Part shown: positions 31,734-61,000 of the stretch, piece by piece
How the letters are laid out: the number at the start of each line of letters is the position of its first letter
Position numbering within the stretch: position 1 is the stretch's first letter
IMG/VR virus record: IMGVR_UViG_3300033069_001022
Location: 26,960-90,959 of that record
Reading direction: 5' to 3' (one strand)
DNA: 64,000 nucleotides
Origin: a virus
Taxonomy: Duplodnaviria; Heunggongvirae; Uroviricota; Caudoviricetes
Made by a program: the position numbers and the translations under genes
Notes under the pieces: generated by a model
What the model saw: only the letters and a program-made list of their open reading frames with translations
Told to the model about the DNA's origin: nothing
Database searches by the model: none

Positions 31734-32273
31734 ATGGGAATTTCTGAATTTGGACAATGGCTTGCCAGTACAATAGATAGGTTTGCAGATTATATAAAAC
31801 CTTGGGTTGTAGTTAATGGTTATGAAGAGGCAGTTATTTTGAGATGGGGGAAGTACCATAGAACTCTAAAACCTGGTACTTATCCCAAATTCCCTATAGC
31901 AGATTATGCCTTGACAGAGCATGTCAAACCAGATACAATGGAAATACCACCAATAACAATAACCACAGCAGACGGGAAACCTGTATCTATAGGTATGATT
32001 ATACATTATGATATTACTAATGTAGAAAAGTTTCTTATAGAAAATAATGATAGTCGGTCCAATATGTTGCAACTTGGCTCAGCAGAATTGTCAGATCATT
32101 TAGAAGATATTCCCTGGATAGATATAAAAAAGAAGACGACTAAAAATGCTGTACAAAGGAAAATTGCACCTTACTTTGACGCTATGGGTGTTAGAATTTT
32201 AGACCTCAAATTTAAAGATAAAGTTGAGGTTAGACCTTATAAATTGTTCACTGACAAAGAAAAAATAATTTAA
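31734..32273 (+). CDS. SPFH/band-7 (stomatin/prohibitin-like) domain protein
   Basis: VVVNGYEEAVILRWGKYHRTLKPGTYPKFPIADYALTEHVKPDTMEIPPITITTADGKPVSIGMIIHYDITNVEKF fits the SPFH core. Confidence 0.5.
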   Translation: MGISEFGQWLASTIDRFADYIKPWVVVNGYEEAVILRWGKYHRTLKPGTYPKFPIADYALTEHVKPDTMEIPPITITTADGKPVSIGMIIHYDITNVEKFLIENNDSRSNMLQLGSAELSDHLEDIPWIDIKKKTTKNAVQRKIAPYFDAMGVRILDLKFKDKVEVRPYKLFTDKEKII

Positions 32274-35126: not shown

Positions 35127-35131
35127 TTTCC

Positions 35132-39388: not shown

Positions 39389-40459
39389 ATGGTTTGTGTA
39401 GATTGTTTAAAAAGTTGTAATGGAATTATCACTCCAGATAAATGTATATCATATACAAATGGTGTTTATCCTCTGTTAGGTATTTGTGGAGATGAATCTT
39501 TGTTTGAAATAGAGGGAATTATCCTAGATAAGTTATTAACTTTGATGGATGGAACTTCTATTACGATAGAAGGCTTAAATACTACTTGTTCCCTAATAGC
39601 TAATATTCAAAGTACTCTTCCTACAACTGTTCCGAATTTATTTCAAACTCTTATAACTGCTTCTTGTAGTTTGCAGAATCAAATTACAAATTTATCAGCT
39701 ATTGTTACAGCAGGATATTCTTTTAATGTAAGCTGTTTATCTGGGATTACTCCTAATTCAAGTAGAGACCAAATAACCCAAGCTGTAATAAATAAGGCTT
39801 GTGATAATGCTTCAAGAATAACAGCAATTGAGAATGATTATGTAAAAGCATCAGATTTATGTGATTTAGTAAATGATTGTATAAATCCTGGTGGAGGCGG
39901 TGGTGGCTCTACTGATACCCAATTTAACACTAGGATGGTTCCATATGCCCCTATACCATATATAGGTTCTTTGTCAAATTTTGATAATACAGGAAAAGGA
40001 TTATCATCTGCTGGTTTTGAAAAAGTATATTTGATGAATGGTTTAAATGGGACTCAGGATTGGAGAGGTAGAAGTCCTATAGGAGCTATTCAAAATGTTC
40101 CTGGTGGAGTATTAGATGCTTCTGTTGACCCATCTCTCCCACAAAATGTAGGTACTAATTATGTTTTAAATCAAAAGGTAGGTGTGTCTTCTGTTGCTCT
40201 TGTAATAAGCCAGATGCCTTCACATACCCATGCTATTTCAGATCCAGGTCATAAACATGGCTATACCCAAGTTAATGGTAATAGCTATACTGGAGGAACG
40301 AGTTCTATTAATGGTAGTGGTGCTAACAATCCTGTAAATACAACTAAAAATACAAATGTATCTAATACAGGTATAACTATAGGATATTCAGGTTCTGGTT
40401 TAGCCCACACTAACTTGCAGCCATCAGCAGCTTGTTACTATATTGTATACATTCCATAA
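39389..40459 (+). CDS. tail fiber-like protein with phage tail-collar (MdpB-type) domain and His-rich HTHxxxxxHKH tip
   Basis: WRGRSPIG...VALVISQMPSHTHAISDPGHKHGYTQ fits the tail-collar core (LRGRxPvG ... QMPxHtH). Gly-rich GGGGGGS hinge. Confidence 0.55.
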   Translation: MVCVDCLKSCNGIITPDKCISYTNGVYPLLGICGDESLFEIEGIILDKLLTLMDGTSITIEGLNTTCSLIANIQSTLPTTVPNLFQTLITASCSLQNQITNLSAIVTAGYSFNVSCLSGITPNSSRDQITQAVINKACDNASRITAIENDYVKASDLCDLVNDCINPGGGGGGSTDTQFNTRMVPYAPIPYIGSLSNFDNTGKGLSSAGFEKVYLMNGLNGTQDWRGRSPIGAIQNVPGGVLDASVDPSLPQNVGTNYVLNQKVGVSSVALVISQMPSHTHAISDPGHKHGYTQVNGNSYTGGTSSINGSGANNPVNTTKNTNVSNTGITIGYSGSGLAHTNLQPSAACYYIVYIP

Positions 40460-42037: not shown

Positions 42038-42054
42038 TATAATAATCAATATAC

Positions 42055-42088: not shown

Positions 42089-42140
42089 TTTATAAACTAT
42101 AATAGTTACATTATTTTGTTAATGAACAAAAAAAGTTATA

Positions 42141-42180: not shown

Positions 42181-42204
42181 TCAATTTTTAACTAAAACAT
42201 TATT

Positions 42205-43401: not shown

Positions 43402-43597
43402 AGTAATTTGGATGTCTTTAGAAATGCAAACAGCTTTAAATTTTATTAAAGACATAGTCGATAAAAACTTTGAATACAGTATATTGTATGCAACAGATTT
43501 TAGTAAAGATAATATGTACAATATAGCAAAAGAGATATATGAAAAATCTTATAAAGATACATTACCAATATCATATTTAGAATACTATAAACCATGA
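43376..43597 (+). CDS. hypothetical protein (73 aa)
   Basis: ORF track. Confidence 0.35.
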   Translation: MENLKQESKVIWMSLEMQTALNFIKDIVDKNFEYSILYATDFSKDNMYNIAKEIYEKSYKDTLPISYLEYYKP

Positions 43598-44301
43598 GTT
43601 ACACCAATAGAGATTTTGTCAGCCAGGTAAGGTCAATGTCTAAGTTATTAAGCTCTGACCAGATGATTACTGATAGAGCTATTCTAAGAGAGGGAAAAGA
43701 CGTTGCTAATTTACTGATTAAGCAGTCAATGGATAAAAGGAAATTATGGCAATCACCAAATGTGTTTGCCTTTTTTCCATGTCTGGAAATGGAGAAAGTT
43801 CCTATCTCTGAATGTTGCGAATACATATCTGAAACTATGGTTGCTAAGTCTAAGAAGAAACTTCCTAAGATTGGTGAAGGAACTTGGGGGCTGGCAATAC
43901 AGGGAGTATATGGTCTGGATATGACAAAGAAACTTAAAGAAGTTAATCCAAATAGGTATGCTAATATTCTAAAACTTAAACTAAATGTCAATGATGTATA
44001 TTACTGGGTCTTAAATGATCATCTTTATATATCTAATCCAGATACAAAAGCTGCCAATATGTTTTTATATCCGGCAGAAATTGTAAGTAATGATTTACTT
44101 TTCCCTGGTGAAGATTGTGATTGCATGGTTAAACCACATATTAGTGATTTATGTGCTAACCCTCTAGACCAACCCTTTTATGCCCCATCAGACCGTATGA
44201 CTGATATTAAAAACATAGTTTATGCCTCTTTAATGAAGACATATTTTGGTATAAAATCGGATGAAACTTCAAATAATTTAGATGAATCTACAAGAAAATA
44301 A
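43594..44301 (+). CDS. hypothetical protein (235 aa)
   Basis: ORF track. The antisense ORF 43599..43991 is judged spurious. Confidence 0.45.
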   Translation: MSYTNRDFVSQVRSMSKLLSSDQMITDRAILREGKDVANLLIKQSMDKRKLWQSPNVFAFFPCLEMEKVPISECCEYISETMVAKSKKKLPKIGEGTWGLAIQGVYGLDMTKKLKEVNPNRYANILKLKLNVNDVYYWVLNDHLYISNPDTKAANMFLYPAEIVSNDLLFPGEDCDCMVKPHISDLCANPLDQPFYAPSDRMTDIKNIVYASLMKTYFGIKSDETSNNLDESTRK

Positions 44302-45058
44302 ATACTATTTATATCGTCATATTAGATTAGACAAAAATGAAGTCTTTTATGTAGGTGTAGGTCAAAAGACTAAACATTATACTTCATATAAGAAAGAATA
44401 TAGAAGAGCTTTTGAAAAGAATACCAATAGAACTAATTATTGGAAAAACATAATTAATCAGACAGATTATGAAGTAGAAATAGTATTGGAGTCTAATAAT
44501 TATGATTTTATATTAGAAAAAGAAAAAGAGTTTATAAAACTGTATGGTAGAAAAGATTTGGGATTAGGCGTATTAGTAAATTTAAATAATGGTGGAGGAG
44601 GGAATAAAGGGTATAAATTGCCTAATGACAAAAGAAAACTCCTTTCTGAAAATAGAAAAAATGAATTTAAAAATGGAACCAGGTCTAAAGCATCTTTTAG
44701 TAAAATTGTTTTTAGATATAATCTAGATGGTAAATTTATAGATGAATTTCCTAGTGTAGTGGCAGCAAGTATTTTTACACATATATCTAAAGAGTCTATT
44801 TATAAAGCCACAACTAATAAATCAAAAATATGTGGAGGTTATTACTGGAGTTATAATAAAATGGATATTATTTCTATACCTTGTAGAAGAAAAAATACAA
44901 AAAAAGTGTGTCAGTATGATCTAAAAGGTAACTTTATTAAAGAGTGGGAAGACTTATACGCTATTACTCACTCATTAAATGTAGATAGAGATAGGATTAA
45001 TAATAATTTAATAAATAAATCTAAAAGTTCTTGTGGGTTTATTTGGAAATATAAATAG
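44282..45058 (+). mobile_element. GIY-YIG homing endonuclease (free-standing, with C-terminal DNA-binding region)
   Basis: YYLYRHIRLDKNEVFYVGVGQ ... YKKEYRRAFEKNTNRTNYWKNII ... EKEFIKLYG fits the GIY-YIG core. Confidence 0.75.
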
Positions 45059-45572: not shown

Positions 45573-46430
45573 ATGCATTACTATAAATATACTTTTGAAA
45601 GCCCAGAAAAACTAATAGCTATTGTCAAAGAAGAGTTTAAATCTTTCTTTGATACAGGGGCTATTGACGATACCATGTTTCCAATATACCTTTCTAAATG
45701 TTTAGATAGACTTGGAAGAGGTTCCTATAGAATAAATTCTGCTATTCTTACAATGGATGATTTTCAAGCAAGATTACCAGATGATTTTTATGCTGTGAGA
45801 GAAGCTTGGTTATGTACTGATGTAACTTCTGCCTATAGACTCCCTGGAGCAGATTACCAACAAGTGGAATCTGTATCTACTAGGTTAGATACACCAGATG
45901 TATATTGTGATAAATGTAGTGAATGTGCTTTACCAGATATTATCAAAGCTGTATATAAAACTACTCACACGGCTTTTGCACACTATAAAAAACAATATCT
46001 TTTAAAACCAGGCACTATATGGAGTAAAGGAGAATGCTCAGAGGATTGTGCAAATTTCCATTCACATGGTCCAGAATCATTTGATATACATGACAATAAA
46101 TTCACAGTAACTTTTAGAGAGGGTAAAGTATATCTTGTCTATTACTCAAAATCATATGATTGTAATGGGTATGAAATGATACCAGATAATTATAGATTAA
46201 AGGAATTTATTGAAGCTTTTCTTAAAATGAAAGTGTGGGAACAGGTTGTTAACAACAATACAGACGAAGGCTTAACTAAGTACTACCTGAATCAATTAGA
46301 TAGGTATACAAGAATGGCTGATGAGGCTTACATTATAGCAGATATAGAAAAGAAGAAAGAGACTGTTTATGATATAAACAGAAAAATTATAAGGGATTTG
46401 AATCGTTTTCAAAAATATGAGATAAGATAA
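45573..46430 (+). CDS. hypothetical Cys-containing protein (285 aa)
   Basis: ORF track. Confidence 0.5.
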   Translation: MHYYKYTFESPEKLIAIVKEEFKSFFDTGAIDDTMFPIYLSKCLDRLGRGSYRINSAILTMDDFQARLPDDFYAVREAWLCTDVTSAYRLPGADYQQVESVSTRLDTPDVYCDKCSECALPDIIKAVYKTTHTAFAHYKKQYLLKPGTIWSKGECSEDCANFHSHGPESFDIHDNKFTVTFREGKVYLVYYSKSYDCNGYEMIPDNYRLKEFIEAFLKMKVWEQVVNNNTDEGLTKYYLNQLDRYTRMADEAYIIADIEKKKETVYDINRKIIRDLNRFQKYEIR

Positions 46431-46431: not shown

Positions 46432-49400
46432 ATGGCTGAAGAAATTTCACTAAATCCTAAACAACTTTATTACGGTTTAAATCCTGACTCAATAACTTCA
46501 CAGTTAAAGCCTGGACAATATCCTTATGCTTTAAACGCAGTTGTAGAAGGTTGGGATGGTAATATACTGACTATTCAGAATGAGCAGGGTAATGTATTTT
46601 GTTTTGATTTCCCTGCTGGTTATAAAGTAATAGGTGGTAAGAATATACCACAATTAGGAAAGATATTCTTTATACTTACTAATCCAGAAACTGGAGATAG
46701 TGAAGTAGGACTAGGTACAAATGATACTTGTGAATATAAAACTTTGATAACCGATGTTGGAAATGGTTGTAAATTCGGATTTAGTGTACATTTTCCCATT
46801 CATAAAATGGTTGTTAAAACCACTAACTGTTCAACACAAGTCTATTTTACAGATGGTCAACCAGGTCACAGGATGTATATTGACTTGGATGATTTACCTT
46901 GGGTGGAAGAAATTGATCCTAATAATTCGTTCAAAAGAATTAAAAAAGTAGGACAACTGGATTGTAATAAATTAAGAGTACAACCTGATTTTAGTATACC
47001 AGAAATTAAAGGAACAGAAGTAACTATTGGTGGAAGTTTAATAACTGGTGTATATCAGGGAGTTATACAGTATGCAAACTCTTTAGGGGAAGGACTTACT
47101 GGTATGTACAATGCTACTAATCCTATAGGTATTTTTGAACAAAAAGAATCTCCGGATTTTAATCTTCCTACTTCTAAAGCTATTACTTTTGAGATAACTA
47201 ATTTAGACCAGAGTGGGTTATATGAATATTTTAATCTGGTTATCATTAAAACAATTAATAATATTGTATCAGTTGAGCAGGTAGGGACTTTTCCTATAGC
47301 AAATACTACATATACATATACATATACTGGAACAAATAAGACAGATAAAGCTCTTAATATAGAAGATGTTTTTCAGAAATATCCTTATTATGATGTTGCA
47401 GAGGATATTTTTGTAGTGGATAATGTGCTGGGCTGGGACCAATTAAAAGAAACAGAAGAGAAAAATTATCAACCTTTCTGGAGTAAAGTATCTCTTTTAT
47501 GGGAGTCATATAAAATACCATATAATCAATTTCAGGGTTATAATAATGGTGTAAATGGGGAAAAATTCAAAGGATATATGAGAGATGAGGTATATCCATT
47601 TGAAGGTTGTTTCCTTTTTACTAATGGTAAACAATCAAGATCTTATCATATTCCTGCTAGACAATCTAATATGCAGGATGTTCAAATAGTACAACCTGAT
47701 AATCCGGATAATAGTTTTTCTACAATAGATCCTTGTAACCCTCCTGAGCCTAAATTCTACTGGCAAGTATATAACACTGCTAGTGTAATAGCTACACCGT
47801 ACACCACTACTCCTGGAGATTGTTATATAGGACCATATCAATATGGAGAAATGGCTTTCTGGGAAAGTGAAGAGAGATATCCTAATAATACTGAAATATG
47901 GGGAACTTTAGCCAATAAAAGAATAAGGCATCATAAAATGCCTGATGTACTGGTTAGTCCCATTCATGATAATAATGATTTAAATGACCCTTCTTTTGAG
48001 CATTCTATATTTCCACTGGGAGTAAAAATTAATCCTATATCCTTTCTTCAGGCTTTAAAGGAGACACTTACTCCTGAAGAGATTTCACAAATAGCTGGTT
48101 TTAAAATAACAAGAGGTAATAGAGTTAATAATAAAAGTATTATTGCTAAAGGACTTATACACAATGTTGGAACAACTCTTTATGAAGATAAAAGTTACTT
48201 TTATCCAAATTATCCATTTAATGATTTAAGAGAAGACCCTTATTATGTTACTACAAAATTAGAGAGCCATGCTGGTTTTTCTAATTTAGAGTCTTTAAAA
48301 GGTTTTGATAATAGTGATGCCAAGAGTCATTTTACATTTCATTCACCAGATACTCATTTTTATCAACCTTCTTTGGGTAATACAGGACAGTTCTTAAAAA
48401 TGGAAACTATAGAATATGGTCAGGCTAAAGGACACTTTGTTAAAGTAACAGATAATGCTGAATATAAATTCCTTACAACCAGGGCTATACAAGCTGCTGC
48501 TGGACTGGGTATATCTGGTGGTGTAGTTATAGGAGCAGGTATGATGGGTTGGCCGGAATATACAATGGCTAATGTAGTTCCAACATATGTAGCTGCTGTA
48601 GATTTATTTGAAAGATTGGCTCCATTTACTAACTTTGCTTATAACTTTAACTCAGTTGGTAACTATAATAAATCATTTGGTATTCCTAATGAAGGTTTTA
48701 AACAACGAGGTATTAACTATAATAAATACATTATAGATGGTTTAAATGCTGTTGAGAATGGTAAAGTCATAAATAATTTTAGAAGAGAGAGTTCTGTTTA
48801 TATTGCTACAAGTGGGGAATTACAATTCCCTACTGAATATTCTGTAACAATTCCTATAGATGACTCACGATATAATATGGCATCTCTTGGGGATGATTTT
48901 TTAACACCAGAAACTATAAGGACTTCTAATATTAGTTCTTACTATGGCTCTATTAAAAGAGATTTAACTAATCAATGGGGATATATGTATTCCTATGAAA
49001 CTATTGATACAGGTTATTATCAAAGCTTAAGAGATTTACAAGGTAACTTCCTATATGAATACCCTACAATATTTGGAGGAGATATATTTATTAATAGATT
49101 TGGTTATAAGTCTAAGCTACCTTTCTTCAGGGATAATACAGTTGGAAATCCTAATTCTACTGATATAGCATATGATGAAATAGGAAATATTAATTTTCCG
49201 ATGTTCTGGATGTCTACAAAAGCAGAAAGATATGATGTACAACTGGATGAAGAAATAGAAGATGTTAGGGGTGAATTCTTAGCACCTTCATTTTTTGATA
49301 TTATAGCCAATCTGGTAGGAGGTGGGGCAAGAGGTTCTCAAAAGGCTATGGCACTAGTAGCTAAATTGTTTGAAGAGATTAGCACTAAAATAGGTATCAA

Positions 49401-51063
49401 GAATTTAAATCTAGACAGGGCAGATACTTCAAAACTGTTTGAACAAGGATTATTCTATTTATTTGCATATGGTATACCATACTTCTTTTGTGAATCAGAA
49501 GTGAATGTAGACTTTAGACAAGCTACTAATACAAGAGAAGGTAATTTCTATCCAAATGTTGGGGGCGATATACCAGATGATTGGTTACAAGAAGTGTCTG
49601 TACCAATTATTGAAGATAATAAATATGTATACAATAAGACCTACTCAAAGCAAAATAAAGAAAATTATTTTGCACATTTGAGGGAGGACTATGATCCAAA
49701 TAAATTATGTAACTCTGAGTTTCAAAATAGAGCTATTTGGTCTGAGAAATCTAATCTGGAAGAAACAAAAAATAACTGGTTAGTTTATAAACCTATTAGT
49801 AGAATAGATTTTCCAAAGAATTACGGATTACTTGTTTCTGTAGATGGTATTGAAAATACTCAAGTACTGGTAAGATTTGAGAATAAAACACAGTTATATA
49901 ACACTTTATTAACTGCTCCTACAAGTGTGGCAGATGTATATCTTGGTAAGAGTTTATTCACAACTACTGTACCACCTTGGGATTATGCAGATACAGATTT
50001 AGGTTATATAGGTACACAGAATAAATTCTTATTAAAAACAGAGCATGGAGATATTACTATAGATGCTTTAAGAGGTCAGATATTCTTAATTAAAGGGCAG
50101 CAAAGTAAAGAATTAAGTGCTGAAGGTGCTAGTAAATTCTTTACAGAGTATCTTCCATTTACAATAAAGAAAGCCTTCCCAGATTATCCTATTGATAATC
50201 ATTTTAATGGAGCTGGTTTACATGGGGTTTATGACCCTAAATATGACAGATTTATAATAACTAAGTTAGATTATAAACCATTACTGGATACTATAGTTTA
50301 TGATGGAAAAGTATTTAAAATTGGTGATAAAATAGTAGAACTAACAGATACTAAATATTTCTGTAATACTTCTTTTACCATATCTTATTCTTTTTCAACT
50401 AATTCATGGACTTCTTATCATTCTTATTTACCAAATTATTATATAGGAAATAACAATTTCTTCTATTCTGGTAAACAAAATGGTATATGGAAACATGATA
50501 CAGCATTTACTCTTTATAATAACTTCTATGGAGAGATTGCTCCATATATTATAGAGTATCCTTATTCATATAAATACTTAGATGAAATATTACAAAATGT
50601 ACAGGACTATTCAAAAATATTACAGTACGATAATTGGCAGTCCTTCGTTGAGACAGATGATTACTATTTTAACAAATGTATAGTATATTCAAACCAACAA
50701 TGTTCTGGAGTATTAGAACTGGATAAAAAACCAAAGAATAATTTATTCACACAGAAAGAATATCCAAAGTATAACACTGAATCAAAAACTATTTTATACA
50801 CAAAGTCAGGTAGTTTTTATCAATTTAATACATTCTGGGACTTGATTAAGAATAATAAACAACCTATGTGGTTGCCTTCTTGTGAATCAGTTTCTATTTT
50901 CAAAGAACTTAATCAAGAGAACATGTCTTATAACAAAAGGTCTTTTAATAAAGCCCCTATTAGGTCTAAAGACTTAAAAATAAGACTTATTAATGATAAG
51001 TATGATAATCTTAAATTTGTAAGTTCATTTTTTATCACCCAAACACAGAAGTCATATAAATAA
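46432..51063 (+). CDS. very large virion-type protein (1543 aa), function unknown
   Basis: ORF track. All internal antisense or alternate-frame ORFs are short. Confidence 0.6.
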   Translation: MAEEISLNPKQLYYGLNPDSITSQLKPGQYPYALNAVVEGWDGNILTIQNEQGNVFCFDFPAGYKVIGGKNIPQLGKIFFILTNPETGDSEVGLGTNDTCEYKTLITDVGNGCKFGFSVHFPIHKMVVKTTNCSTQVYFTDGQPGHRMYIDLDDLPWVEEIDPNNSFKRIKKVGQLDCNKLRVQPDFSIPEIKGTEVTIGGSLITGVYQGVIQYANSLGEGLTGMYNATNPIGIFEQKESPDFNLPTSKAITFEITNLDQSGLYEYFNLVIIKTINNIVSVEQVGTFPIANTTYTYTYTGTNKTDKALNIEDVFQKYPYYDVAEDIFVVDNVLGWDQLKETEEKNYQPFWSKVSLLWESYKIPYNQFQGYNNGVNGEKFKGYMRDEVYPFEGCFLFTNGKQSRSYHIPARQSNMQDVQIVQPDNPDNSFSTIDPCNPPEPKFYWQVYNTASVIATPYTTTPGDCYIGPYQYGEMAFWESEERYPNNTEIWGTLANKRIRHHKMPDVLVSPIHDNNDLNDPSFEHSIFPLGVKINPISFLQALKETLTPEEISQIAGFKITRGNRVNNKSIIAKGLIHNVGTTLYEDKSYFYPNYPFNDLREDPYYVTTKLESHAGFSNLESLKGFDNSDAKSHFTFHSPDTHFYQPSLGNTGQFLKMETIEYGQAKGHFVKVTDNAEYKFLTTRAIQAAAGLGISGGVVIGAGMMGWPEYTMANVVPTYVAAVDLFERLAPFTNFAYNFNSVGNYNKSFGIPNEGFKQRGINYNKYIIDGLNAVENGKVINNFRRESSVYIATSGELQFPTEYSVTIPIDDSRYNMASLGDDFLTPETIRTSNISSYYGSIKRDLTNQWGYMYSYETIDTGYYQSLRDLQGNFLYEYPTIFGGDIFINRFGYKSKLPFFRDNTVGNPNSTDIAYDEIGNINFPMFWMSTKAERYDVQLDEEIEDVRGEFLAPSFFDIIANLVGGGARGSQKAMALVAKLFEEISTKIGIKNLNLDRADTSKLFEQGLFYLFAYGIPYFFCESEVNVDFRQATNTREGNFYPNVGGDIPDDWLQEVSVPIIEDNKYVYNKTYSKQNKENYFAHLREDYDPNKLCNSEFQNRAIWSEKSNLEETKNNWLVYKPISRIDFPKNYGLLVSVDGIENTQVLVRFENKTQLYNTLLTAPTSVADVYLGKSLFTTTVPPWDYADTDLGYIGTQNKFLLKTEHGDITIDALRGQIFLIKGQQSKELSAEGASKFFTEYLPFTIKKAFPDYPIDNHFNGAGLHGVYDPKYDRFIITKLDYKPLLDTIVYDGKVFKIGDKIVELTDTKYFCNTSFTISYSFSTNSWTSYHSYLPNYYIGNNNFFYSGKQNGIWKHDTAFTLYNNFYGEIAPYIIEYPYSYKYLDEILQNVQDYSKILQYDNWQSFVETDDYYFNKCIVYSNQQCSGVLELDKKPKNNLFTQKEYPKYNTESKTILYTKSGSFYQFNTFWDLIKNNKQPMWLPSCESVSIFKELNQENMSYNKRSFNKAPIRSKDLKIRLINDKYDNLKFVSSFFITQTQKSYK

Positions 51064-51064
51064 T

Positions 51065-51136
51065 ATGGGTGATTATTTTAAATATTATCTTTATATACAT
51101 ATCCGTTTAGATAAAAATGAAGTATTTTATAAATAA
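51065..51136 (+). pseudogene. decayed N-terminal fragment of a GIY-YIG endonuclease gene (MGDYFKYYLYIHIRLDKNEVFYK-stop)
   Basis: About 50 nt nearly identical to the start of 44282..45058 (YYLYRHIRLDKNEVFYVGVG). Confidence 0.5.
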
Positions 51137-51209
51137 AAATCTATATAGAAAAAGATTTAAGCTAGAATATTTATTAACAGAAACACAAAAATCTTTCAAA
51201 TAAAATACT

Positions 51210-51728
51210 ATGGAACTGTTTAAAATTACACAAAGTAAAAACCCTTTTGCAACAGAATCTGTAATTAAAATACTTAATTATAGAATAGAACAAGAAGAAC
51301 AATCTTCTAGATTATATCACTCAATGTCCCTATGGTTAAATGATAATGGGTTTATGGGGGCAGCTAAAGCTTGGCAAAAGGATGCTGATGGGGAAATGGA
51401 ACACGCTAACTGGGCTAAAGAATATCTTCTAGATATGGGTGTTAAACCTACACTACCAGCTCTTCAAAAACCACCACATGATTTTACTGGATTATGTGAT
51501 ATAATAAGAATGTCTTTTGAACATGAAATAGTGGTTACGAAACAATGTAATGATTTAGCTAACAATGCTTTGAAGACAGGTGATAATCTTCTGTATCAGT
51601 TGGCTAATAAATTCCTACAAGAACAACAGGAAGAACTAGGTAAATTACAAACTTTACTTGATAAACTAGAAGCTTTTGGAGAAGACAAAATTGCACTTAG
51701 ATTACTTGATAATGAATTAGGCTCTTAA
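51210..51728 (+). CDS. ferritin-like (non-heme ferritin/Dps superfamily) protein
   Basis: Four-helix-bundle pattern with ferroxidase-site-like residues: ...EEQSSRLYHSM...EMEHANWAKEYL...FEHEIVVTKQ...FLQEQQEELGKL. Confidence 0.6.
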   Translation: MELFKITQSKNPFATESVIKILNYRIEQEEQSSRLYHSMSLWLNDNGFMGAAKAWQKDADGEMEHANWAKEYLLDMGVKPTLPALQKPPHDFTGLCDIIRMSFEHEIVVTKQCNDLANNALKTGDNLLYQLANKFLQEQQEELGKLQTLLDKLEAFGEDKIALRLLDNELGS

Positions 51729-51729
51729 T

Positions 51730-54700
51730 ATGGTAAAGAAAAAACTTATACCCAAGAAAGGTACACTGGTGAATGGTAAAAAGGTTACTGAAAAACAACG
51801 CAAGTTTTTCACAGATATGTGTTCTATGGAAGATGGTGGAACTATTCTACCTATAGCAGATTCTGGTATACACATAAAACCTGAGAACAAAGGGAAATTT
51901 ACAGCCACTAAAAAAAGGACTGGTAAATCCACTGAAGAACTTACCCATAGTAAAAACCCTCTTACCAGAAAAAGAGCTATTTTTGCACAGAATGCAAAGA
52001 AATGGAAACATGAAGATGGTGGTAGTATAGCTATTACTCCGTTGGAGCAATATCAGGGCCTAAATAATTCAACAAAAGACCAGATGATTTTTCCTATGAC
52101 TGGAAAGAATATATTCAGAGGTCTGGATAATGGTCAACCTGTTATGCTGCAAGATACTACTGGCAAGCAGAAAATACTTACTGGCCCACAAGATACTGCC
52201 ATGATGAAGGGAACTGTTAAAGAAAAAAGAATTAAAGCACAGCAAGGTGCTTCAGTAGATTGGAATAGTGATTGGCTTAAATCTCCTATGGCTCAGAAGA
52301 TGAATCAGGGGGAGCAGGATTTCACTACTGAGAGATTGCAGTCTCTTAAAGATTTATCTCCTACAAATATAATGCCACAAAAACAACTAGAAGCTATGAC
52401 TGGTAATAAGTCAAAACATCTGGGAGTTTATGATAGTAATAAACATACTGTAAATATAAATAGTAAAATAAAAGACCCTTCCTTATTTAATGTAGTCGAA
52501 ACACATGAGAAAAGTCATGCTGCTGACAAAGGTGGAAAACTTATGTCTAAAGAAGATTTAAACATGACAGACTCAGAAGGAAGGGCTTTACTGAATCAAG
52601 CAAGATATGAGTATCAGAATAATGGTACTTATGACCCTTTTACACAACCTTTTAAATCAGAATACTTGAAAGACAAAAACAACGGTATCAGAAATTTAAA
52701 GAAAAAATATTCTGATGACCAAATAACAAACTTAATGAATTCTGTATCCTCTATAGATTCTAAAGGAACTCCTATAGCTAAATGTGGTAAGTCTGTAAAG
52801 GGAAAGATGAAAAAGGCACAACAAGGTTTAATCACTCAAGAGGAGAAAGACAGAAGATTATGGGGTGAACAAAATCAGCAAGTTGTAACTAACCCTGATG
52901 CACAACCACTTCAAGCAAACCCTGACTATAATCCTAATCAGCAGACACAGTTCATTGATAAGGGTATAGCAGAGCCTATTTCTACTTCAAGTGTAAAAAC
53001 TACTTTTCAAACCAATAATAATAAACCTAAGACAGTTGGTAAAACTGATAAGAAAAATGATCATCCTTCCTTTGGCGTTGGCGAAGCTTTAACTGCTGGT
53101 ATTGGAATGGCACAAATGTTACTTGGTCCAGAGGGAGAAAGAAGGAGAATAGATAATACTTTAGCTTACAATCCATATGCTTATGGAACTGGCTCTCAAG
53201 CTCTTGCAAAGAAAGGTAAATCTGTTAAACCTTCTCATCAAGGACAAGGACTTATGACCTATGAAGGAGGTAATGCCCCTAAAGTGTCTGAAAATATATT
53301 TGATGGTGGCACACACTTATTCACTGGAGATTCCCATAAAGATGGAGGTATAATATCCTCTTTTAATGGTACACCATTTGAAGCTGAAGGTGGAGAACCT
53401 TTTGCTAAAATAGAGGGAAAAGGTGTTGTTTTTGGAGATTTAGTAAATCCAGTAACTGGAAGAACCTACAAAAAAGACGCCAAAGAAATAATGAAAAAAG
53501 AATTAAAGATTAGTAAATACCTGGATAAAGGTACTGAATTGGTTAATGAAAAAGATCCTACAGATAAGTTTGAAAGATTAGCTTTTAACTCTGGTAGAGT
53601 TATGATAGAAGGGGCAGCAACTAAGTTAAAACAAATAGCAGATTCAAAAGCCCATCTTGCTGAATTACAGGAAGCACAACTTGAAATAGAAGGGGAAGAA
53701 GCTTTTGCTAAACATGGTAAGATAATCAAAGCCCAATCAGGTGTTACAGCCCCTGTTAGACCTACTATCGAAGGTTCAAAATATTCGCTATACCCAAATG
53801 CTCTAGAGGGATTAGCCAGAAAGGTGGCAGATGAAGTTGGTTTAGACCCTAATCTATTTCATAAAGTGGTCACACAAGAAAGTCAGTACAACCCAAAAGC
53901 AGAGTCTAGACCAAATAGGAGAACTGGTGAAAATGCCTTGGGGTTGGCTATGTTAACTCCTAAAGTAGCAAAAGAATATGGATTATCAAAAAAGGATTTA
54001 GTAGATGATAGTTTTGAAGGATATTCTAAGAATCTATTTGCAGGAGCCACAGAGTTGAAAAAAAGAATAGATAAATATAATGGAGACACTAAACTTGGTC
54101 TTCTTGATTATAATGGAGGAGAAGGAGCTGTAGCTTCTGCAAGAAGAAATGCTAAAAAACAAGGTCTGATAAAAACAGATAGTGAGTTTACAGGAGATAT
54201 AGGTGTCACTGCTTTATCCAATAAAAGGAAAAAAAGAGGTTCTACAAACCCTGATTTGTGGGAAGTACAGAGTGTAGACTATGTTAATAATATAATGGAT
54301 GCAGATGAAGCTGCTTTCCCACAAAAAGCTGCTAATTTTAATAAAAATTTCTATCAGCAACCTACTCCTGATTTTAGTTTACCCACTCCACAACTACAGG
54401 GTTTAACTCCTGAAGAGATAGCTACTATGGATGGTAAGAAACCAAATGTACCTAACCAACCAGCTACAGGTTCAGCTCCTTTTGAATGGAAAAAAGTAGA
54501 ACCTTTTGGTATAAAACCTACTAATGATAAACTTCAGTTATCTCAGATAATGGGAGAAACTGCTGCATTGTTTGATAGACCAGATTTTGTACAAGGGCAA
54601 AGATATAATCCAGACTTATACACACCTTATCAGGTGTCTTTCCAGGATAGGATTAACCAGAACTCAAAGACATTCAATGCTTTACAAAGTACTATGGCTG

Positions 54701-55272
54701 GTAATCCAGAAGCTTTAGCTACTATGGCTGGACAACAGTACTCTGCTAATGATGCTGTATTAGCTGAAGAATTCAGGACTAACCAAGCTATATCTAATGA
54801 TATAACTAATAAGAATGTAGCTTTATTAAATGATGCAAAACTAAAAAATATATCTCTGATTGATCAACAGTATGTTAGACAAAACCAAGCTAAGAGTATA
54901 ACTAAGCAGAATAGGACAAATGCTCTTAACTCCATATCTTCAAAAATATTACAGAAGAAAGCTTCTAATAATCTGTTGAATACATATAAAAATATGTTCC
55001 CTCACTATGACTTTGATGGTAATTATCAAGTAGTTAAACAAGGTCCAGGAGGAGAAGAATATGTTAATTTTCCTGGACAAGTGGGAACTAATCCTTTTGC
55101 AACTACTGATAATAAAGTTCAAACCACTTATGAAAATGGCGTTGAAAAATCAAAAAAAGTAACTACTGAACCTTCTTATGTAAGGGATAAAAAATACCTA
55201 GAATTGCAGAAACAACTTAATGATTTGAAATTTAATGGTAGTATTGTTAAAAAATATAGAGGCTCAAATTAA
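51730..55272 (+). CDS. large virion protein (1180 aa) with an internal SLT-type lytic transglycosylase domain
   Basis: TQESQYNPKAESRPNRRTGENALGLAMLTPKVAKEYGL ... LLDYNGGEGAV matches SLT catalytic motifs. Confidence 0.6.
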   Translation: MVKKKLIPKKGTLVNGKKVTEKQRKFFTDMCSMEDGGTILPIADSGIHIKPENKGKFTATKKRTGKSTEELTHSKNPLTRKRAIFAQNAKKWKHEDGGSIAITPLEQYQGLNNSTKDQMIFPMTGKNIFRGLDNGQPVMLQDTTGKQKILTGPQDTAMMKGTVKEKRIKAQQGASVDWNSDWLKSPMAQKMNQGEQDFTTERLQSLKDLSPTNIMPQKQLEAMTGNKSKHLGVYDSNKHTVNINSKIKDPSLFNVVETHEKSHAADKGGKLMSKEDLNMTDSEGRALLNQARYEYQNNGTYDPFTQPFKSEYLKDKNNGIRNLKKKYSDDQITNLMNSVSSIDSKGTPIAKCGKSVKGKMKKAQQGLITQEEKDRRLWGEQNQQVVTNPDAQPLQANPDYNPNQQTQFIDKGIAEPISTSSVKTTFQTNNNKPKTVGKTDKKNDHPSFGVGEALTAGIGMAQMLLGPEGERRRIDNTLAYNPYAYGTGSQALAKKGKSVKPSHQGQGLMTYEGGNAPKVSENIFDGGTHLFTGDSHKDGGIISSFNGTPFEAEGGEPFAKIEGKGVVFGDLVNPVTGRTYKKDAKEIMKKELKISKYLDKGTELVNEKDPTDKFERLAFNSGRVMIEGAATKLKQIADSKAHLAELQEAQLEIEGEEAFAKHGKIIKAQSGVTAPVRPTIEGSKYSLYPNALEGLARKVADEVGLDPNLFHKVVTQESQYNPKAESRPNRRTGENALGLAMLTPKVAKEYGLSKKDLVDDSFEGYSKNLFAGATELKKRIDKYNGDTKLGLLDYNGGEGAVASARRNAKKQGLIKTDSEFTGDIGVTALSNKRKKRGSTNPDLWEVQSVDYVNNIMDADEAAFPQKAANFNKNFYQQPTPDFSLPTPQLQGLTPEEIATMDGKKPNVPNQPATGSAPFEWKKVEPFGIKPTNDKLQLSQIMGETAALFDRPDFVQGQRYNPDLYTPYQVSFQDRINQNSKTFNALQSTMAGNPEALATMAGQQYSANDAVLAEEFRTNQAISNDITNKNVALLNDAKLKNISLIDQQYVRQNQAKSITKQNRTNALNSISSKILQKKASNNLLNTYKNMFPHYDFDGNYQVVKQGPGGEEYVNFPGQVGTNPFATTDNKVQTTYENGVEKSKKVTTEPSYVRDKKYLELQKQLNDLKFNGSIVKKYRGSN

Positions 55273-55358: not shown

Positions 55359-58007
55359 ATGGCAAGTTTTACAGATCAACCAATTCAGTTCAACCCCTAC
55401 GTGGAAACTACCCCTGTTCAGGCAATGGTAGCTGTAGGTATGCAGAAGGAACAAGACTTTAAGCAAGGAATTGCTAAGGTACAATCCTATGTGGATACCA
55501 TAGCTGGATTAGATATAGCTAAAGAAGAGGATAAGCAATATGTATCTACTAAACTCAATGAGGTTAAAGAGGGTATTGCTAAGAATTTATCTGGAGATTT
55601 CTCTGATAGTAGAATAACTAACCAAATTGGTGGAGCTGCTGTGCATATTTATAAAGATCCTGTAGTACAAAATGCTACAGTATCTACTGCTAATTATAGA
55701 AAAGGAATAGCAGATATAGAAGCTGCACAAAAAGCTGGTAAATCAGATAAAAACAATGAGGATTACTACTATAATGAGGCTAATAAATGGTTAACAGATA
55801 AGACTCCTGGCACAAAGTTCTCTGGTTCTTTTATTGAGTATACAGATATAATGAAAAGAATTAGGGAAAATGTATCTGCTGCTGGTATAGATAGTAGGTA
55901 TGTAGAACAAATGTATGAAACAGATGGTAATGGTAAGTTATTACTGGATAAAAATAACCATTTAATACCTGCACTTACTATGAGTGCTTTAACCACAGAT
56001 TCTAATGCCAAACAAGTACAATCCATTGTAGCTAATGTTTTAAAGGAAGGTAATATCCAACAGCAAATTCAGGTTGATGGTTGGGCAAATACAAGGAATA
56101 TTCAACCAAGTGCTATCTATGAATCTTTTTTAATGGATTTTGCAGCCAGAGATGTGGATGCTCAGGAAGCATTATTAAAAATACAATCATCTCTTGGTAG
56201 TCCGGAATTATCTACAGAGAAAAGAGCAGAATTAGAAAAACAAAAATTAGAATTACAAACTTATCAAAATAGTAACTCTACAAAATTAAAGCAGTTAAAA
56301 GAGCTAGCTCTTGTAGATCCTGATAAATTTAAACAGAATTATTATCAAGATAATTATGTTAATAATTTGTTAATGGGTTTTTCCACAGTTAAAGAAAAAC
56401 AGGAGAATAAAGAAAACCCTCTTAGAAAACAGTATAACTGGTTTGAGGAGATGAATTTTAAAAGGGAGAATGAAAACTGGAATAGAAATTTAGAGGCTCA
56501 GAAAATGAGGAACCAGGTTTCTCAGTTTGAACTTACTTTTAAAGCAGACCATGAGCAAGACCCTGTTACTGGAGAATGGAGTCCCAAAGCTACTGGGTCT
56601 AAGAAAAAAGGGTCTGTAACTACAACAACTCCAACTGAGGTTTCAGCACCTGCTCCAGGTACACCCATAGATGCTGTATCACAAGTAATGGCAACCACTG
56701 AAAATATTAAAACAGAAGCTTTTAAAATGGGCTTCGGTTTGTTTTATCAGAATTTAAGAAAACTTAATGGTGAAACTATTACAGATTTAAAGGGTAAAAA
56801 AGTTCCATTAGATGAAAATAGGGCTTTGGAATTAATAGGACAATATGCCAAAGCTAGAGGACAATCTAGGGAAGAGTATATAGCTGCTTATATGGGAGGC
56901 ATGGATCAAAACAGTGAAAACTCTAATGTACCATTAAATGCCCAAGATGCTGCTGTTGTAGCTGATTATAAAAAACTTAACAACTCTCTGGGAAATATTA
57001 CAGCAACTACTGCTGAGATATATAGACAAGTAGAAAAAGAAACAGGTGTTGATCCTAGAACTTTTTCAAAATCTTTAAAACCAGATGTAGTTAGAGAAGG
57101 TAGTCAAACTTATAATATAAGTGTACAAGATCAGATAGATTATGCTACTATAGTTGGTGGTAGAAAGAACAATATAAATGACGCAACAGTTAAAGCAGCC
57201 GAAGATAATTTAAAGAAAAAATTTGGTATTCAGTATTCAAGAATACTAGAATTATCTGGTGAACCAGGTAAATATGTAAAGCTATCAAGTCAGGGAAACT
57301 TTACTAAAGCATTAAATCTTGCTGCTGAGAAATTTAAGAAAGTTAATATAGTACAAGATCCCTTTGCTGGATCAGTTATGGCTTCTCCAGAAGAGCAAGC
57401 TAATGCTAGAAATCAAGTAATGGCTATACTTACTCCAGATTCTCCAGGGAGATTGGATAGTGACGATAGGAGAAAGGCACTGGCTGTCTTAGCCAGAAAC
57501 AAAGATGCAGCAATTACCTATATTGCTAATAGACCAACACAACTTGGACAACCTTGGACTGGGAAAGTTACTATTGTAGATGATAAAGACGGTAAGCCTT
57601 ATTCTATAGATGTTAATGAAAAAGAACTGGAAGCAGTAACTGGTAGAGATTTTAAAGAGTCTGATGAAAGAGGTTATGCCGCAAGGAGCAATGTTAGTAG
57701 ATTTGGTTCTACAAACTTAGCTACTTGGACAACTGACCCAAATGCATGGCAAACTGCTGCTATAGGTAAAGAACATTTCAGTGGTTTAAAAAATTCTGGT
57801 ATATCTGCCAGTGCTGATATTATAACTCTACCAGATGGTTCTAAAGGATTATCCTTATATTATAAAGAAAAGGGAGCAGATAAATTCAGTAGACTTGAAG
57901 TTATGCCATCTACACCTATATATACTTTTAATGGTATAGCTAATATTGTGCCTATGATTACAGAAGCCGATATTAAAAAACAATTAGAAAAAAATAAGAA
58001 GAAATAA
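55359..58007 (+). CDS. large virion-type protein (882 aa), unknown
   Basis: ORF track. Confidence 0.55.
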   Translation: MASFTDQPIQFNPYVETTPVQAMVAVGMQKEQDFKQGIAKVQSYVDTIAGLDIAKEEDKQYVSTKLNEVKEGIAKNLSGDFSDSRITNQIGGAAVHIYKDPVVQNATVSTANYRKGIADIEAAQKAGKSDKNNEDYYYNEANKWLTDKTPGTKFSGSFIEYTDIMKRIRENVSAAGIDSRYVEQMYETDGNGKLLLDKNNHLIPALTMSALTTDSNAKQVQSIVANVLKEGNIQQQIQVDGWANTRNIQPSAIYESFLMDFAARDVDAQEALLKIQSSLGSPELSTEKRAELEKQKLELQTYQNSNSTKLKQLKELALVDPDKFKQNYYQDNYVNNLLMGFSTVKEKQENKENPLRKQYNWFEEMNFKRENENWNRNLEAQKMRNQVSQFELTFKADHEQDPVTGEWSPKATGSKKKGSVTTTTPTEVSAPAPGTPIDAVSQVMATTENIKTEAFKMGFGLFYQNLRKLNGETITDLKGKKVPLDENRALELIGQYAKARGQSREEYIAAYMGGMDQNSENSNVPLNAQDAAVVADYKKLNNSLGNITATTAEIYRQVEKETGVDPRTFSKSLKPDVVREGSQTYNISVQDQIDYATIVGGRKNNINDATVKAAEDNLKKKFGIQYSRILELSGEPGKYVKLSSQGNFTKALNLAAEKFKKVNIVQDPFAGSVMASPEEQANARNQVMAILTPDSPGRLDSDDRRKALAVLARNKDAAITYIANRPTQLGQPWTGKVTIVDDKDGKPYSIDVNEKELEAVTGRDFKESDERGYAARSNVSRFGSTNLATWTTDPNAWQTAAIGKEHFSGLKNSGISASADIITLPDGSKGLSLYYKEKGADKFSRLEVMPSTPIYTFNGIANIVPMITEADIKKQLEKNKKK

Positions 58008-58013: not shown

Positions 58014-61000
58014 ATGCCCGAAGAAAAATTACCTGTAAATTTATCTGGACCAACACATCTTGGTGAAAATGGATTAGTACCTTTGGTTACACCAGATTTA
58101 CCATCTATTAGTACAGGAACAAGAGCTTACCAGGAATCTAAATCTGGATTTGATGCATTATTTAATAGTGTCAATCCAAAACCTGGTTTTGAAGCATCTT
58201 CTAAAATGCAATCAGAAGTAGACCCTTTACTTTCTGGCAGATACAATAATGTGTATTATGATGCTAATAATGAGGATTTATATGGTAGAGAACAAGGGTT
58301 CATGGATAAAGCTGTTAATGGCACACTAAAAGGTTTAAATCTTGCAGCCACTACTTTTGTGGGTGGCTTAGGTACTGTATATGGTATTGGTAAATCTATC
58401 AGTACAGGGAAGTTATCTGATGTGTGGGATAACGAAATATTAAGAGGTATAGACGACTGGAATAAGAAAGTAGATAATGAATACCTACCTAACTATTACA
58501 CAGATAATGAATCTAATGCAGCCTGGTATTCTTCTGACAATTTTACAACCAACTTTTTATTCGATAAACTGGTAAAGAATTTAGGATTTGCTGTGGGAGC
58601 TATCTACTCAGGTAACTTAATGGCTAAAGGACTAAGCTTTGCTGGAGAAGGGATAGGAACAATGTTCTCTTCTTTAGGTAAATACACTGAAGCTTGGAAG
58701 AGCTTTTCAGATGTTAACAAATATACTGCCAGATTATTTTCACAAGGTAAGAATATAGAAGCAGCAGAAGTTTTGCAGAAAGGTATTAAATCTATATCTG
58801 ATATAGAAGATGTAAGTGCTAATATGCTTAAAATATCTAAGCAGTTTAACAATATAGCTGGTGCTCAAGATTTTACAAGAAGGTCTTTAATGGCTTTATA
58901 TTCTTCTGCTGGAGAATCTTCTTTTGAATCTATTGGTACAGCAAGAGCTTTTAGAGAAAAAGAAATACAATCTTTTAAAGATAAGTATGGCTTTGATCCT
59001 TCTGCTGAGGAAATAGCTAAAATAGATGCACTAGCCTCTAAAGCAGGAAATTTTTCTTTCTTGGCTAATATGGCTGTTTTATCTGCTACAGAGTTTACAC
59101 AATTACCATATTTAATGGGAAGTTCTTATAGAACATCTAAAGCAGCTTCTAATGCCTTTAGAACTACTGAAGATGTAGCTGTTAGAGAAGGTAAATATGT
59201 AGCTAAGGAATTGGGAAAAGTAGGTAAGACAACTAAGTTTTTAAAGACTTATGTTTTTGACCCTAAAGAATCTCTTCAGGAATATTTACAAACATCCATA
59301 GATGTTGGTGTGCAGGATTATTATGACAAAGCATATAAAGGAACCGAAGCCAAAGACTTAACTCGGGCTTTTATTGATACTAGTTTAGATGCTTTGGGGC
59401 ATACTTTAACATCTAAAGAAGGTGGTGAAAGTATATTACTTGGTGGTATATCTGGTGGCCTTATGCAGATAAAAGGAAATAGACAAGCCAATAAATATAA
59501 GAAAACAAATACAAATTCTTTTCTTGCTGAATTGAATGTGCCTGAAAATACATTTACAAATGCTTTTGCTGACAGAGTTAATTCTTTGCAAAGAAGTATA
59601 AGTATTCAACAAGAAGCAGAAGGAGCTATAGAATCTGATGATAAGAAAGGATTCTTGGATAAGAAATTTGATCAGACTCATAACTATATTTCTACTAGAG
59701 TAAAATATGGTAGGGCAGATATGGTATATGATGAAATTGAAGCAAGAAGGTTACAATCTGTCAGTGAAACAGATTATAAAGCTTTACAGGCTAAAGGTGG
59801 AGCACCTATGGGTTTATCCCGTATTGATTATATTAAGAAATTAGATGATTTTGAAAAACACACTAAAGCTGTGGAATCTCTGTATGAGTCTATGACTTTA
59901 AGGTATCAAGGTCAGTTAAATACTGACGGCACACGGAAGTATTCTGATGAGGTTATTGACAAGATGATATATGGTGCAGCTAAGGTAAATGATTATGACA
60001 AGAGGTTAATTGAAATAAGTAATGAAATATCTACACATGGTATTGATACTACCAGTATTAATGAGTCTTTAAAACAATCAGCTTCTTGGCAGGAAGGTAA
60101 GCAAGAAGATGATATTAGAGAAGGAGGAGTTGTAAAATCTATAACAGATACAGTAGCTAATATAGAAGCTTTAGATGTTACACCAGATATAAAGCAAGAC
60201 CTTAAAGATAGTTTTTCTGATTATATTGAGGTAGCTTTAAGTAGGAAGAAAATCCTAGGGGAACTTAATGAGATTATAAAAACACCTGAAGTATTTAATG
60301 AGCCTATAGTAGATATAGTTGCAGCTACTAGCGAAGGTGAAGTGGGTAAACCTAAAACCATTAAAATCACTACTAAAGATGGTGAAGAAGATATCGAGAT
60401 AGGTACTGAATACTACTTAGGAGATTATGTTAAAAAAGATGCTAAAGGAAGAGATGTATATTTATTCCCTAAATTTACTGTGCTTGGAGAAAATCCAGAT
60501 GGTACTATACAGGTAAAAGATAAGGATGGTGTGAGAAATGTGTCTAAGGAAGAATTTATAAAGTATAAACCAGGTAAGGTATCTGATACACTCAATAATA
60601 AGAAAGCAAAGTTTTATCTGGAGAATATTAATAATGTATTTGAGTTCAATTTTGGTAAAGGTAAAAAAAGAAAAGGTAGATTAAGGTATTCAACAAAGGA
60701 TAGGATACTTGAATTTGTATATGTTGACGGGAAGAAAACAAAAGCAATAGAAGTTACAGGAGATCAGTTTATAGCTAAAGAAGGGTTTAAACAAGCTCTT
60801 ATTACTAAAGTAGGTACATTAACTGCTGCTGAAGAAAAGACTTTACAGGACTTTGCCAAAGAAAAAGATGATAGAATACAAGCTAAAAGAGCTGTAAGGA
60901 TACAGATTATAGAATCTCTTATAGATGAAACTGGAACAAGAATTGAGAAGATTCAAAAGGATTTAGTTGCTAAGCATGAGCAGTTATCTAAAACTGTAGA

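Follow-up and report, generated by a model that had tools for sequence, protein, structure and literature searches.

A classical ferritin gene within the virion gene module of crAss-like phages

A bacterial-type non-heme ferritin (Ftn) is encoded among the virion genes of a crAss-like phage, on a stretch of 64,000 nucleotides taken from an IMG/VR record (IMGVR_UViG_3300033069_001022, positions 26,960 to 90,959; hereafter termed the window). In the ORF listing of the window, the gene is an ORF of 172 aa with an ATG start at 51210..51728 on the + strand, and it was identified as Ftn-type through Pfam and PDB matches, alignment, an AlphaFold model and dN/dS. The ferritin is a mobile accessory gene (a “moron” or auxiliary metabolic gene) inside the late operon. 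Our preferred explanation, to which we assign a probability of about 0.6, is a late-expressed phage ferritin that would oxidise and sequester iron in the infected cell, with its timing read from the gene position only. What is unusual here is the carrier and the placement of the ferritin, not the protein itself. Classical ferritin is among the best-understood iron proteins and its carriers here are relatives of the most abundant phage group known, yet as far as we found this protein has not been reported in crAss-like phages.

Protein identity and ferroxidase centre

The original prediction, made from the letters of the window, described the ORF as ferritin/Dps-like and named Ferritin and Rubrerythrin as the Pfam families to look for. 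The Ferritin family (PF00210) is matched with E 2.6e-24 and 86.2 bits, against a cut-off of 24.5 bits, over profile positions 1-140 of 142, and the Rubrerythrin score of the ORF lies below the family threshold. Among all PDB sequences, the best matches are the ferritins of V. cholerae (3qz3, E 2e-25) and H. pylori (3bve, E 2e-21), E. coli FtnA (1eum) is matched at E 5e-19, and 40 or more solved ferritins are matched full-length within a range of about E 1e-25 to 1e-14. The AlphaFold2 monomer model, with 33 homologues as input, reached a pLDDT of 91.5 and consists of helices A (residues 16-45), B (49-75), C (95-123), D (126-156) and E (160-171), whose long B-C loop and short fifth C-terminal E helix form the topology of a maxi-ferritin. 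Compared by Foldseek with 3qz3 and 1eum, the model gives TM-scores of 0.87-0.92 and an rmsd of 1.4-1.5 Å. The protein is an Ftn, which is a narrower assignment than merely ferritin-like; the ferritin part of the prediction is thus borne out by the Pfam and TM values, and the Dps part is contradicted by the E helix and the intrasubunit site.

Dps was weighed as an identity in its own right and rejected: the protein has an E helix, no helix in its B-C loop and a complete intrasubunit site, and all top sequence and structure matches are Ftn. We also rejected an encapsulin-type targeting peptide, since the C-terminus of the protein consists of the E helix only. In PHROGs, the counterpart of the window ferritin is phrog_16594, labelled “unknown function”, and IMG annotates some of the copies as “ferritin”.

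In E. coli FtnA, the intrasubunit di-iron centre is formed by E17, E50, H53, E94 and E130 with Q127 and Y24, and the third iron site C of prokaryotic Ftn by E49, E126, E129 and E130. We aligned the window protein with 32 homologues and an FtnA sequence identical to 1eum_A, and nine catalytic residues were invariant in all 34 sequences: E29, Y36, E62, H65, E106, E138, Q139, E141 and E142 of the window protein, which correspond to E17, Y24, E50, H53, E94, E126, Q127, E129 and E130 of FtnA. Going by the roles known from FtnA structures, we take these nine residues to comprise both ferroxidase sites (A and B), the Tyr and Gln that are conserved, and all but one of the four carboxylates of site C. 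The EE, EH and QEQ clusters, from which the fold had been guessed, are true ferroxidase ligands that align with those of FtnA. At site C, E138, E141 and E142 are kept, and the position of FtnA E49 is occupied by G61 in the window and by D, G or E in the relatives. The ferroxidase centre is intact and the window ferritin is, as predicted from its sequence, catalytically competent; given this intact centre and the location in a virion/late module, an iron-related function is very likely.

Placed beside the bacterial Ftn proteins (FtnA 1eum; V. cholerae 3qz3; H. pylori Pfr 3bve), the window protein belongs to the same Pfam family, has the same length and five-helix topology, and shares identical sites A and B, Tyr24, Gln127 and three of the four site-C carboxylates, at 29-36% sequence identity and an rmsd of ~1.5 Å. 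As a protein, judged by sequence and predicted structure, it is an ordinary member of the Ftn group, in agreement with all tested criteria except the variable site-C E49 position. Unlike the bacterial proteins, it is virus-encoded and lies inside a virion gene module. Unlike FtnA, it carries an N-terminal extension of 12 residues, with the motif KNPFAT at residues 10-15, and the E49 position is Gly, Asp or Glu across the viral family. The motif KNPFA(T/S) is conserved in the viral ferritins, where it follows a variable tail of 0-30 residues, and FtnA has no such extension. The N-terminus of a ferritin lies on the outer surface of the cage.

Gene order around the ferritin

The Crass capsid and ring proteins 1 and 2 mark the window as a crAss-like phage. 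The terminase (27058..29133) and the portal (29130..31730), both assigned by PHROG, are followed by an SPFH/Band-7 gene directly 3′ of the portal (31734..32273, + strand) and by the major capsid protein (33576..35126; Pfam Crass_capsid, E 5e-26). Further along, and all on the + strand, lie tail ring protein 2 (43594..44301; Pfam CrAss_Ring_2), tail ring protein 1 (45573..46430; Pfam CrAss_Ring_1) and a 1543-aa homologue of the tail muzzle protein (46432..51063) in the position of PhiCrAss001 gp44, which matches the virion structural protein family phrog_37948. After the muzzle comes an AT-rich spacer of 146 nt (51064..51209, + strand) and then the ferritin gene, whose TAA stop occupies 51726-51728; the ATG of the next gene stands 1 nt further on. 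This next gene encodes an 1180-aa protein (51730..55272, + strand) in the position of cargo C1 (gp45); its residues 696-812 form an SLT lytic transglycosylase domain. It is followed by an 882-aa protein (55359..58007, + strand), assigned to the cargo C2 (gp46) position by synteny and with no family match, and by the N-terminal 2 kaa of a 3422-aa giant (58014..64000, + strand, running off the window), which synteny places at gp47/49/50. Pfam and PHROG scans of the giant ORFs of the window and of two relatives (L047, L048) gave essentially no match, and their RNA polymerase identity is drawn from synteny and size only. The post-portal slot, which holds SPFH in the window, is the ferritin site of most other ferritin-bearing crAss-like phages.

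In PhiCrAss001 the order is ring protein R1 (gp43), muzzle (gp44), cargo C1 (gp45), C2 (gp46) and the giants gp47, gp49 and gp50 associated with RNA polymerase, and gp45, gp46, gp47, gp49 and gp50 have all been detected in virions by mass spectrometry (PMC10172136). The window has the same order, interrupted by a single additional gene: the ferritin, which stands between the muzzle and the gene at the C1 position. The window also shares with PhiCrAss001 the ring proteins and the Crass capsid; PhiCrAss001 itself has no ferritin, and it is by gene position that the ferritin of the window falls inside the cargo block. The 172-aa ORF is therefore found, as described, between ORFs of 1543 and 1180 aa, and the “giant virion proteins” said to flank it correspond by synteny to the muzzle and to a cargo protein with an SLT domain.

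The ferritin is co-directional with the late genes of the window. In the closest relative (L001), about 114 nt of the 146-nt spacer are missing and the gap between muzzle and ferritin is 9 nt; the spacer has no second copy within the window and is not a repeated element. A scan for promoters and terminators around the ferritin gave nothing convincing on the + strand, no Rfam family was found within 44-58.5 kb of the window, and clear hairpins followed by T-runs lie further upstream, at 38081-38168 and 42038-42204. These hairpin positions and the site-free surroundings of the ferritin are consistent with co-transcription of the block that contains it. The GC content of the ferritin gene (0.28-0.33) equals that of its flanks, which indicates long residence in AT-rich phage genomes. 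Elsewhere in the window there are NUMOD1 and NUMOD4/HNH endonuclease-like ORFs. The original prediction had also suggested a look for other iron-related genes, and Pfam found no other iron-related domain among the 28 window ORFs scanned, on a window that covers about half of the genome.

Distribution, insertion slots and selection

The identical ferritin in the same context was recovered from JGI metagenome 3300020576 and from an independent Logan assembly. Beyond this gene, the family numbers in the hundreds, with homologues of 42-88% identity carried by viral contigs 85-166 kb long. A word-indexed search returned 309 homologues, many of them on contigs of 90-166 kb, of which the best 120 of 309 are all at least 65% identical, and an exhaustive search returned 1676 matches, which above 50% identity reduce to ~7 representatives and then continue in a shell at 40-48%. 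Scans of IMG/VR gave 56 ferritin-bearing viral loci. The same family, at 65% identity, also occurs on a non-crAss viral contig (L010) together with SelO, ClpP, DnaJ and AAA genes. The ferritin-bearing relatives are described as aquatic phages, and one relative of the ferritin has a Tara Oceans source label. Against the sequenced phages, megablast with 44-60 kb of the window gave no match, and tblastn with the ferritin gave no close homologue, only two short unannotated faecal contigs at ~30% identity.

A scan of cellular genomes with the single ferritin protein gave no match. The signature peptides of the family, compared with 185,579 species-representative genomes, were found at a single locus, a contig of 104.8 kb binned into an Omnitrophota MAG, where the ORFs on either side of the ferritin measure 2657+ and 1911 aa, an arrangement like that of slot 4 below. 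This is probably a mis-binned phage contig. In this respect the window clade is unlike bacterial Ftn, although the scan is pattern-based, thus the result applies to the family signature in cellular genomes and not to every cellular relative. Recent capture from a host was considered and rejected, as the gene does not differ from its flanks in GC content and the family seems to be restricted to viruses. What emerges is a large ferritin family, seen only in viral contexts, that has repeatedly been captured into the virion module.

Using the window proteins as tblastn probes together with ORF maps, we located the ferritin in four slots within the late/virion module, and in each of them it points the same way as the late genes. 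Slot 1 immediately follows the portal and precedes a p414-like gene and the MCP; it accounts for about 30 loci. Slot 2, after the muzzle and before the cargo genes, is occupied in the window, L001/L002, L003, L030, L045 and probably L043, as well as in the NCBI/JGI assemblies L183 and L184/L185; in L183 an HNH endonuclease gene abuts the ferritin. Slot 3 lies among the head genes (L029, L046), and slot 4 is found where the late block ends, flanked by two giant ORFs (L033, L047-L056 and the contig of P0142). Homologues from the outer shell fell mostly on contigs of ~1 kb, too short to show their neighbours; in one of them, P0142, the ferritin again stands 3′ of a giant ORF.

Within the clade of the window the gene is rare. 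Viral relatives anchored by the muzzle (40-92% identity, same gene order) carry the ferritin in 2 of 46 cases, which are the two closest contigs, and a post-portal ferritin is present in 0 of the best 80 of 351 relatives anchored by the portal (55-95% portal identity), whose post-portal slot is filled by an SPFH gene or a gene of that size. Empty sites are preserved in L059 and L060, where the muzzle stop abuts the start of a cargo gene of 1181 or 1146 aa. The ferritins of slot-1 phages are 58-72% identical to that of the window, while TerL, portal and MCP are only 21-30% identical; likewise the ferritins of L003 (81%) and L030 (about 70-75%) are paired with muzzles of 24-27% identity. Nucleotide homology between the window and L003 (77%) is confined to the ORF (51210-51733). 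In the neighbour-joining tree (500 bootstraps), the group of the window, L002 and L003 has 100% support and lies inside a crown where slot-1 ferritins dominate (79%), the slot-4 ferritins form a clade with 100% support, and the slot-2 ferritins were monophyletic in 0 of 500 bootstraps, which implies that the junction between muzzle and cargo genes was colonised more than once. Rarity in the clade of the window, empty sites and the non-monophyly of post-muzzle copies together indicate that the ferritin behaves as a mobile accessory gene. An ORF-sized cassette jumping between defined junctions, once with an HNH endonuclease, makes a case for accessory-gene movement within structural operons. In 13 pairwise comparisons that span all clades, dN/dS of the ferritin is 0.04-0.28, thus the gene is under strong purifying selection wherever it resides.

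Proposed iron sequestration, possible virion cargo and known relatives

Under our preferred explanation, the ferritin would be transcribed late in infection together with the virion genes, and its subunits would assemble into a 24-subunit cage. Fe2+ would be taken up and oxidised at the di-iron site (E29, E62, H65 / E62, E106, E142, Q139), and the ferric mineral deposited in the cavity of the cage. The labile iron pool and Fenton damage may thereby be lowered during phage DNA replication and packaging and the turnover of host iron proteins, and/or scarce iron may be hoarded by the phage ferritin, which would act at a time when host gene expression can no longer do so. The ferritin would then not be a building block of the particle. 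The Dps and Mn-catalase of “Gratiaviridae” have been interpreted by the same logic, as protection against oxidative stress (PMC8008677). That said, several observations sit uneasily with an intracellular role. The ferritin is found repeatedly beside genes of packaged or ejected proteins, namely the portal, muzzle/C1 and the giant RNAP-like proteins, and not in early or replication regions, and a virion-associated role fits this at least as well; the KNPFAT extension, absent from FtnA, has no role in the intracellular model; and the variable site-C ligand (FtnA E49, Gly in the window) counts against it. In either case, the gene makes it possible to test how iron and oxidative stress are managed by phages during infection, and whether phage particles carry iron.

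The ferritin could itself be virion cargo that shares the cargo zone of the capsid or tail with C1, C2 and the RNA-polymerase giants, where it would serve as a particle-borne iron store or as subunits delivered to control iron and oxidative stress of the next host at the start of infection. We regard this, the main rival, as unlikely, even though all four slots fall within the virion module, three of them lie right beside genes that correspond to the portal of PhiCrAss001 or to its cargo proteins confirmed by mass spectrometry, only 1 nt separates the ferritin from the C1-position gene, and independent insertions recur at the muzzle/C1 junction. The conserved N-terminal extension would also face the outer surface of the cage, and there is room for a 24-mer of ~0.48 MDa in the capsid cargo zone of PhiCrAss001, which holds ~5.1 MDa (PMC10172136). 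However, cargo passes constrictions of <50 Å partly unfolded (PMC10172136), which an assembled, mineralised cage of 12 nm cannot do, and late operons commonly hold non-structural accessory genes. The same family is also present in the non-crAss context of L010. Most relatives that have this cargo set lack the ferritin, as do all the sequenced phage genomes searched, so that it is not part of the conserved ejection machinery. Packaging in crAss-like virions specifically, whether of a cage within the cargo zone of the capsid or of subunits ejected along with C1, C2 and RNA polymerase, we hold to be decidedly doubtful. If it were true, it would be much more notable than an intracellular accessory role: an iron-storage machine would physically travel with, or be delivered by, these abundant aquatic phage particles, this would be the first ferritin known as virion cargo, and the view that a meaningful share of colloidal iron resides in viral particles would gain a concrete molecular vehicle.

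The original prediction leaned instead towards a Ferrojan-horse role, in which the ferritin acts as an iron chaperone for the HxH motifs of a fibre or for other virion parts, and the particles exploit host iron-uptake receptors; we consider this highly improbable. An HxH-containing fibre-like protein is encoded in the same genome: a 356-aa protein (39389..40459, + strand) bears the motif HTHAISDPGHKH at 40223-40258, although at residues 279-290 and not at its very tip as supposed, and the “tail-collar” label given to it fails, with no Pfam Collar-domain match at E<=0.01 and matches to PHROG tail-fibre families instead. Histidine clusters do bind iron in T4 gp37 and phage spike proteins, but T4 and similar phages load their fibre iron without any phage ferritin, and a ferritin sequesters Fe3+ mineral and does not donate Fe2+. 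References on histidine-cluster iron in T4 gp37 and phage spikes are cited in PMC8244752. The fibre gene lies 11 kb upstream of the ferritin and is not co-inherited with it, 44 of the 46 relatives with the same muzzle and tail module have no ferritin, and the presence of the ferritin tracks no visible fibre feature, which leaves the proposed link unsupported. A “ferritin” predicted by Phyre2 was seen by mass spectrometry in preparations of Vi01-like phages, but TonB and FeoB mutants were infected normally in that study (PMC10892097). Of the original idea there remains a genuine phage-borne ferritin in a virion/late module, with a very likely iron-related function, and the specific link to fibres and the Ferrojan horse drops out. 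The crAss-like nature of the element, the ejected cargo proteins encoded downstream and the mobility of the gene among four slots had escaped the original prediction. A cage with a non-iron use, such as an assembly scaffold, a decoy or a Dps-like DNA-protecting particle, has a very small chance of being correct. It could draw on the alternative post-portal occupant in the clade of the window, SPFH/Band-7, which is another ring- or cage-forming family, and on the N-terminal motif, which is conserved and has no assigned function; against it, all catalytic iron ligands are invariant in a gene under strong purifying selection, a constraint that a role outside iron handling would not demand, the family has no common positively charged Dps-like N-terminal tail, and all best structural matches are Ftn, not Dps. 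An artefact, be it host DNA joined by misassembly or contamination or a decaying passenger, might be suspected from L030, whose ferritin is frameshifted at a G-run. This reading is effectively refuted by recurrence and selection: the gene and its context are identical on independent JGI and Logan contigs, syntenic copies exist in dozens of viral contigs, gene and flanks agree in GC content, dN/dS lies well under 1, and the signature is absent from the 185,579 species-representative genomes except for one probable phage contig.

Among known systems, encapsulins offer a conceptual parallel only, as an HK97-lineage shell that is genetically linked to a protein of the ferritin superfamily. The cargo proteins of encapsulins (EncFtn, Flp or IMEF types) bear a targeting peptide at the C-terminus, while the window protein is a full Ftn that ends in the E helix. 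Full-text literature searches found no paper that links ferritin with crAss-like phages or Crassvirales, and the ferritin sequences, although public in IMG and PHROGs, have apparently gone undiscussed. The precedents that we found are Dps and catalase of gut phages, the Phyre2 “ferritin” of Vi01-like phages, and ferritin-like genes of giant eukaryotic viruses and virophages. Like the window ferritin, the Dps and Mn-catalases of “Gratiaviridae” and some Lactobacillus phages are accessory genes of the ferritin superfamily that are read as protection from iron- or oxygen-driven damage (PMC8008677). They differ in that Dps is a 12-mer and the active sites are of other kinds, whereas the window encodes a maxi-ferritin with an intrasubunit di-iron centre and an E helix, and its carriers are crAss-like phages. 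The ferritin-like genes of Nucleocytoviricota and gp217 of the Vi01-like phages are similarly virus-encoded and assigned to the ferritin superfamily. The gp217 protein was found in virion preparations and its gene lies next to a tail gene; unlike the window ferritin, it is a remote fold prediction (Phyre2, 22% identity) without a demonstrated ferroxidase site (PMC10892097). The ferritin-like proteins of giant viruses differ from the window ferritin in belonging to viruses of eukaryotic hosts and in standing in other genomic contexts.

The ferritin family beyond typical crAss-like contigs

The same ferritin family was found in a viral contig of non-crAss type, IMG/VR GVMAG-M-3300006056-32 (12.9 kb), where a gene at 2904-3461 encodes a family member at 65% identity and is surrounded, on mixed strands, by SelO-like, ClpP, DnaJ, AAA ATPase and ATP-grasp genes. 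The family therefore crosses virus types. In the genome collection, the sole match to the family signature came from JALNZI010000005.1 (104,799 bp), a contig labelled as a Candidatus Omnitrophota MAG. Its ferritin is flanked by ORFs of 2657+ and 1911 aa, an arrangement resembling the viral loci in which ferritin lies between two giant ORFs, and the contig also gives a weak match to the giant protein of the window. It probably derives from a phage and ended up in a bacterial MAG through binning.

Endonucleases, and a second accessory gene in or beside the ferritin junctions

In a 123.8 kb contig of GCA_043956535.1 (L183), the 3′ end of the post-muzzle ferritin is directly adjoined by an HNH endonuclease gene of 163 aa (10531-11022), and because of this abutment we suggest that the spread of the ferritin cassette was endonuclease-assisted. 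The window itself carries two homing-endonuclease-like ORFs, both on the + strand: one with NUMOD4 and HNH domains in the upstream block (22156-22689), and one with a NUMOD1 domain (44282-45058) that separates ring protein 2 from the 158-aa gene as an insertion. L001 and L057, which are the closest relatives, lack it at this place.

The junctions used by ferritin are also occupied or adjoined by an SPFH/Band-7 gene, the second small accessory gene whose product belongs to a family that forms rings or cages. It lies directly 3′ of the portal in the window (31734-32273, +), and of the 80 clade relatives considered (the best 80 of 351 portal matches), at least 34 have it in this position as well. 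In other crAss-like phages it has ring protein 1 on one side and the muzzle on the other, as in three loci with post-muzzle ferritin, L184 (4925-5437), L185 (966-1478) and L030 (about 4932-5411). The ferritin of L030 (about 9960-10500) is divided over two frames at the G-run ATGGGGG; the split marks either a misassembly or a gene in decay.

Spacers, gaps and giant proteins of the late module

The muzzle and ferritin genes of the window are separated by a unique AT-rich spacer of 146 nt (51064-51209), in which no promoter, terminator or Rfam match was found. About 114 nt of it are absent from the closest relative, whose muzzle-ferritin gap is 9 nt. Three intergenic gaps, after the capsid gene (35127-35210), the 379-aa gene (38081-38168) and the 521-aa gene (42038-42204), contain GC-rich hairpins with T-runs behind them, and may be transcription-unit boundaries inside the late module.

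Giant proteins of 1400-4670 aa flank or follow ferritin in the window, where the giant ORF at 58014-64000 (+) lies downstream of it, and in the loci L047, L048 and L188. They gave no Pfam or PHROG match except one DUF4116, and are putative virion RNA-polymerase-like proteins, assigned from size and position. Elsewhere in the window, a lone tRNA-Arg gene (anticodon TCT) is present at 14043-14117 (-), within the leftward small-ORF block.
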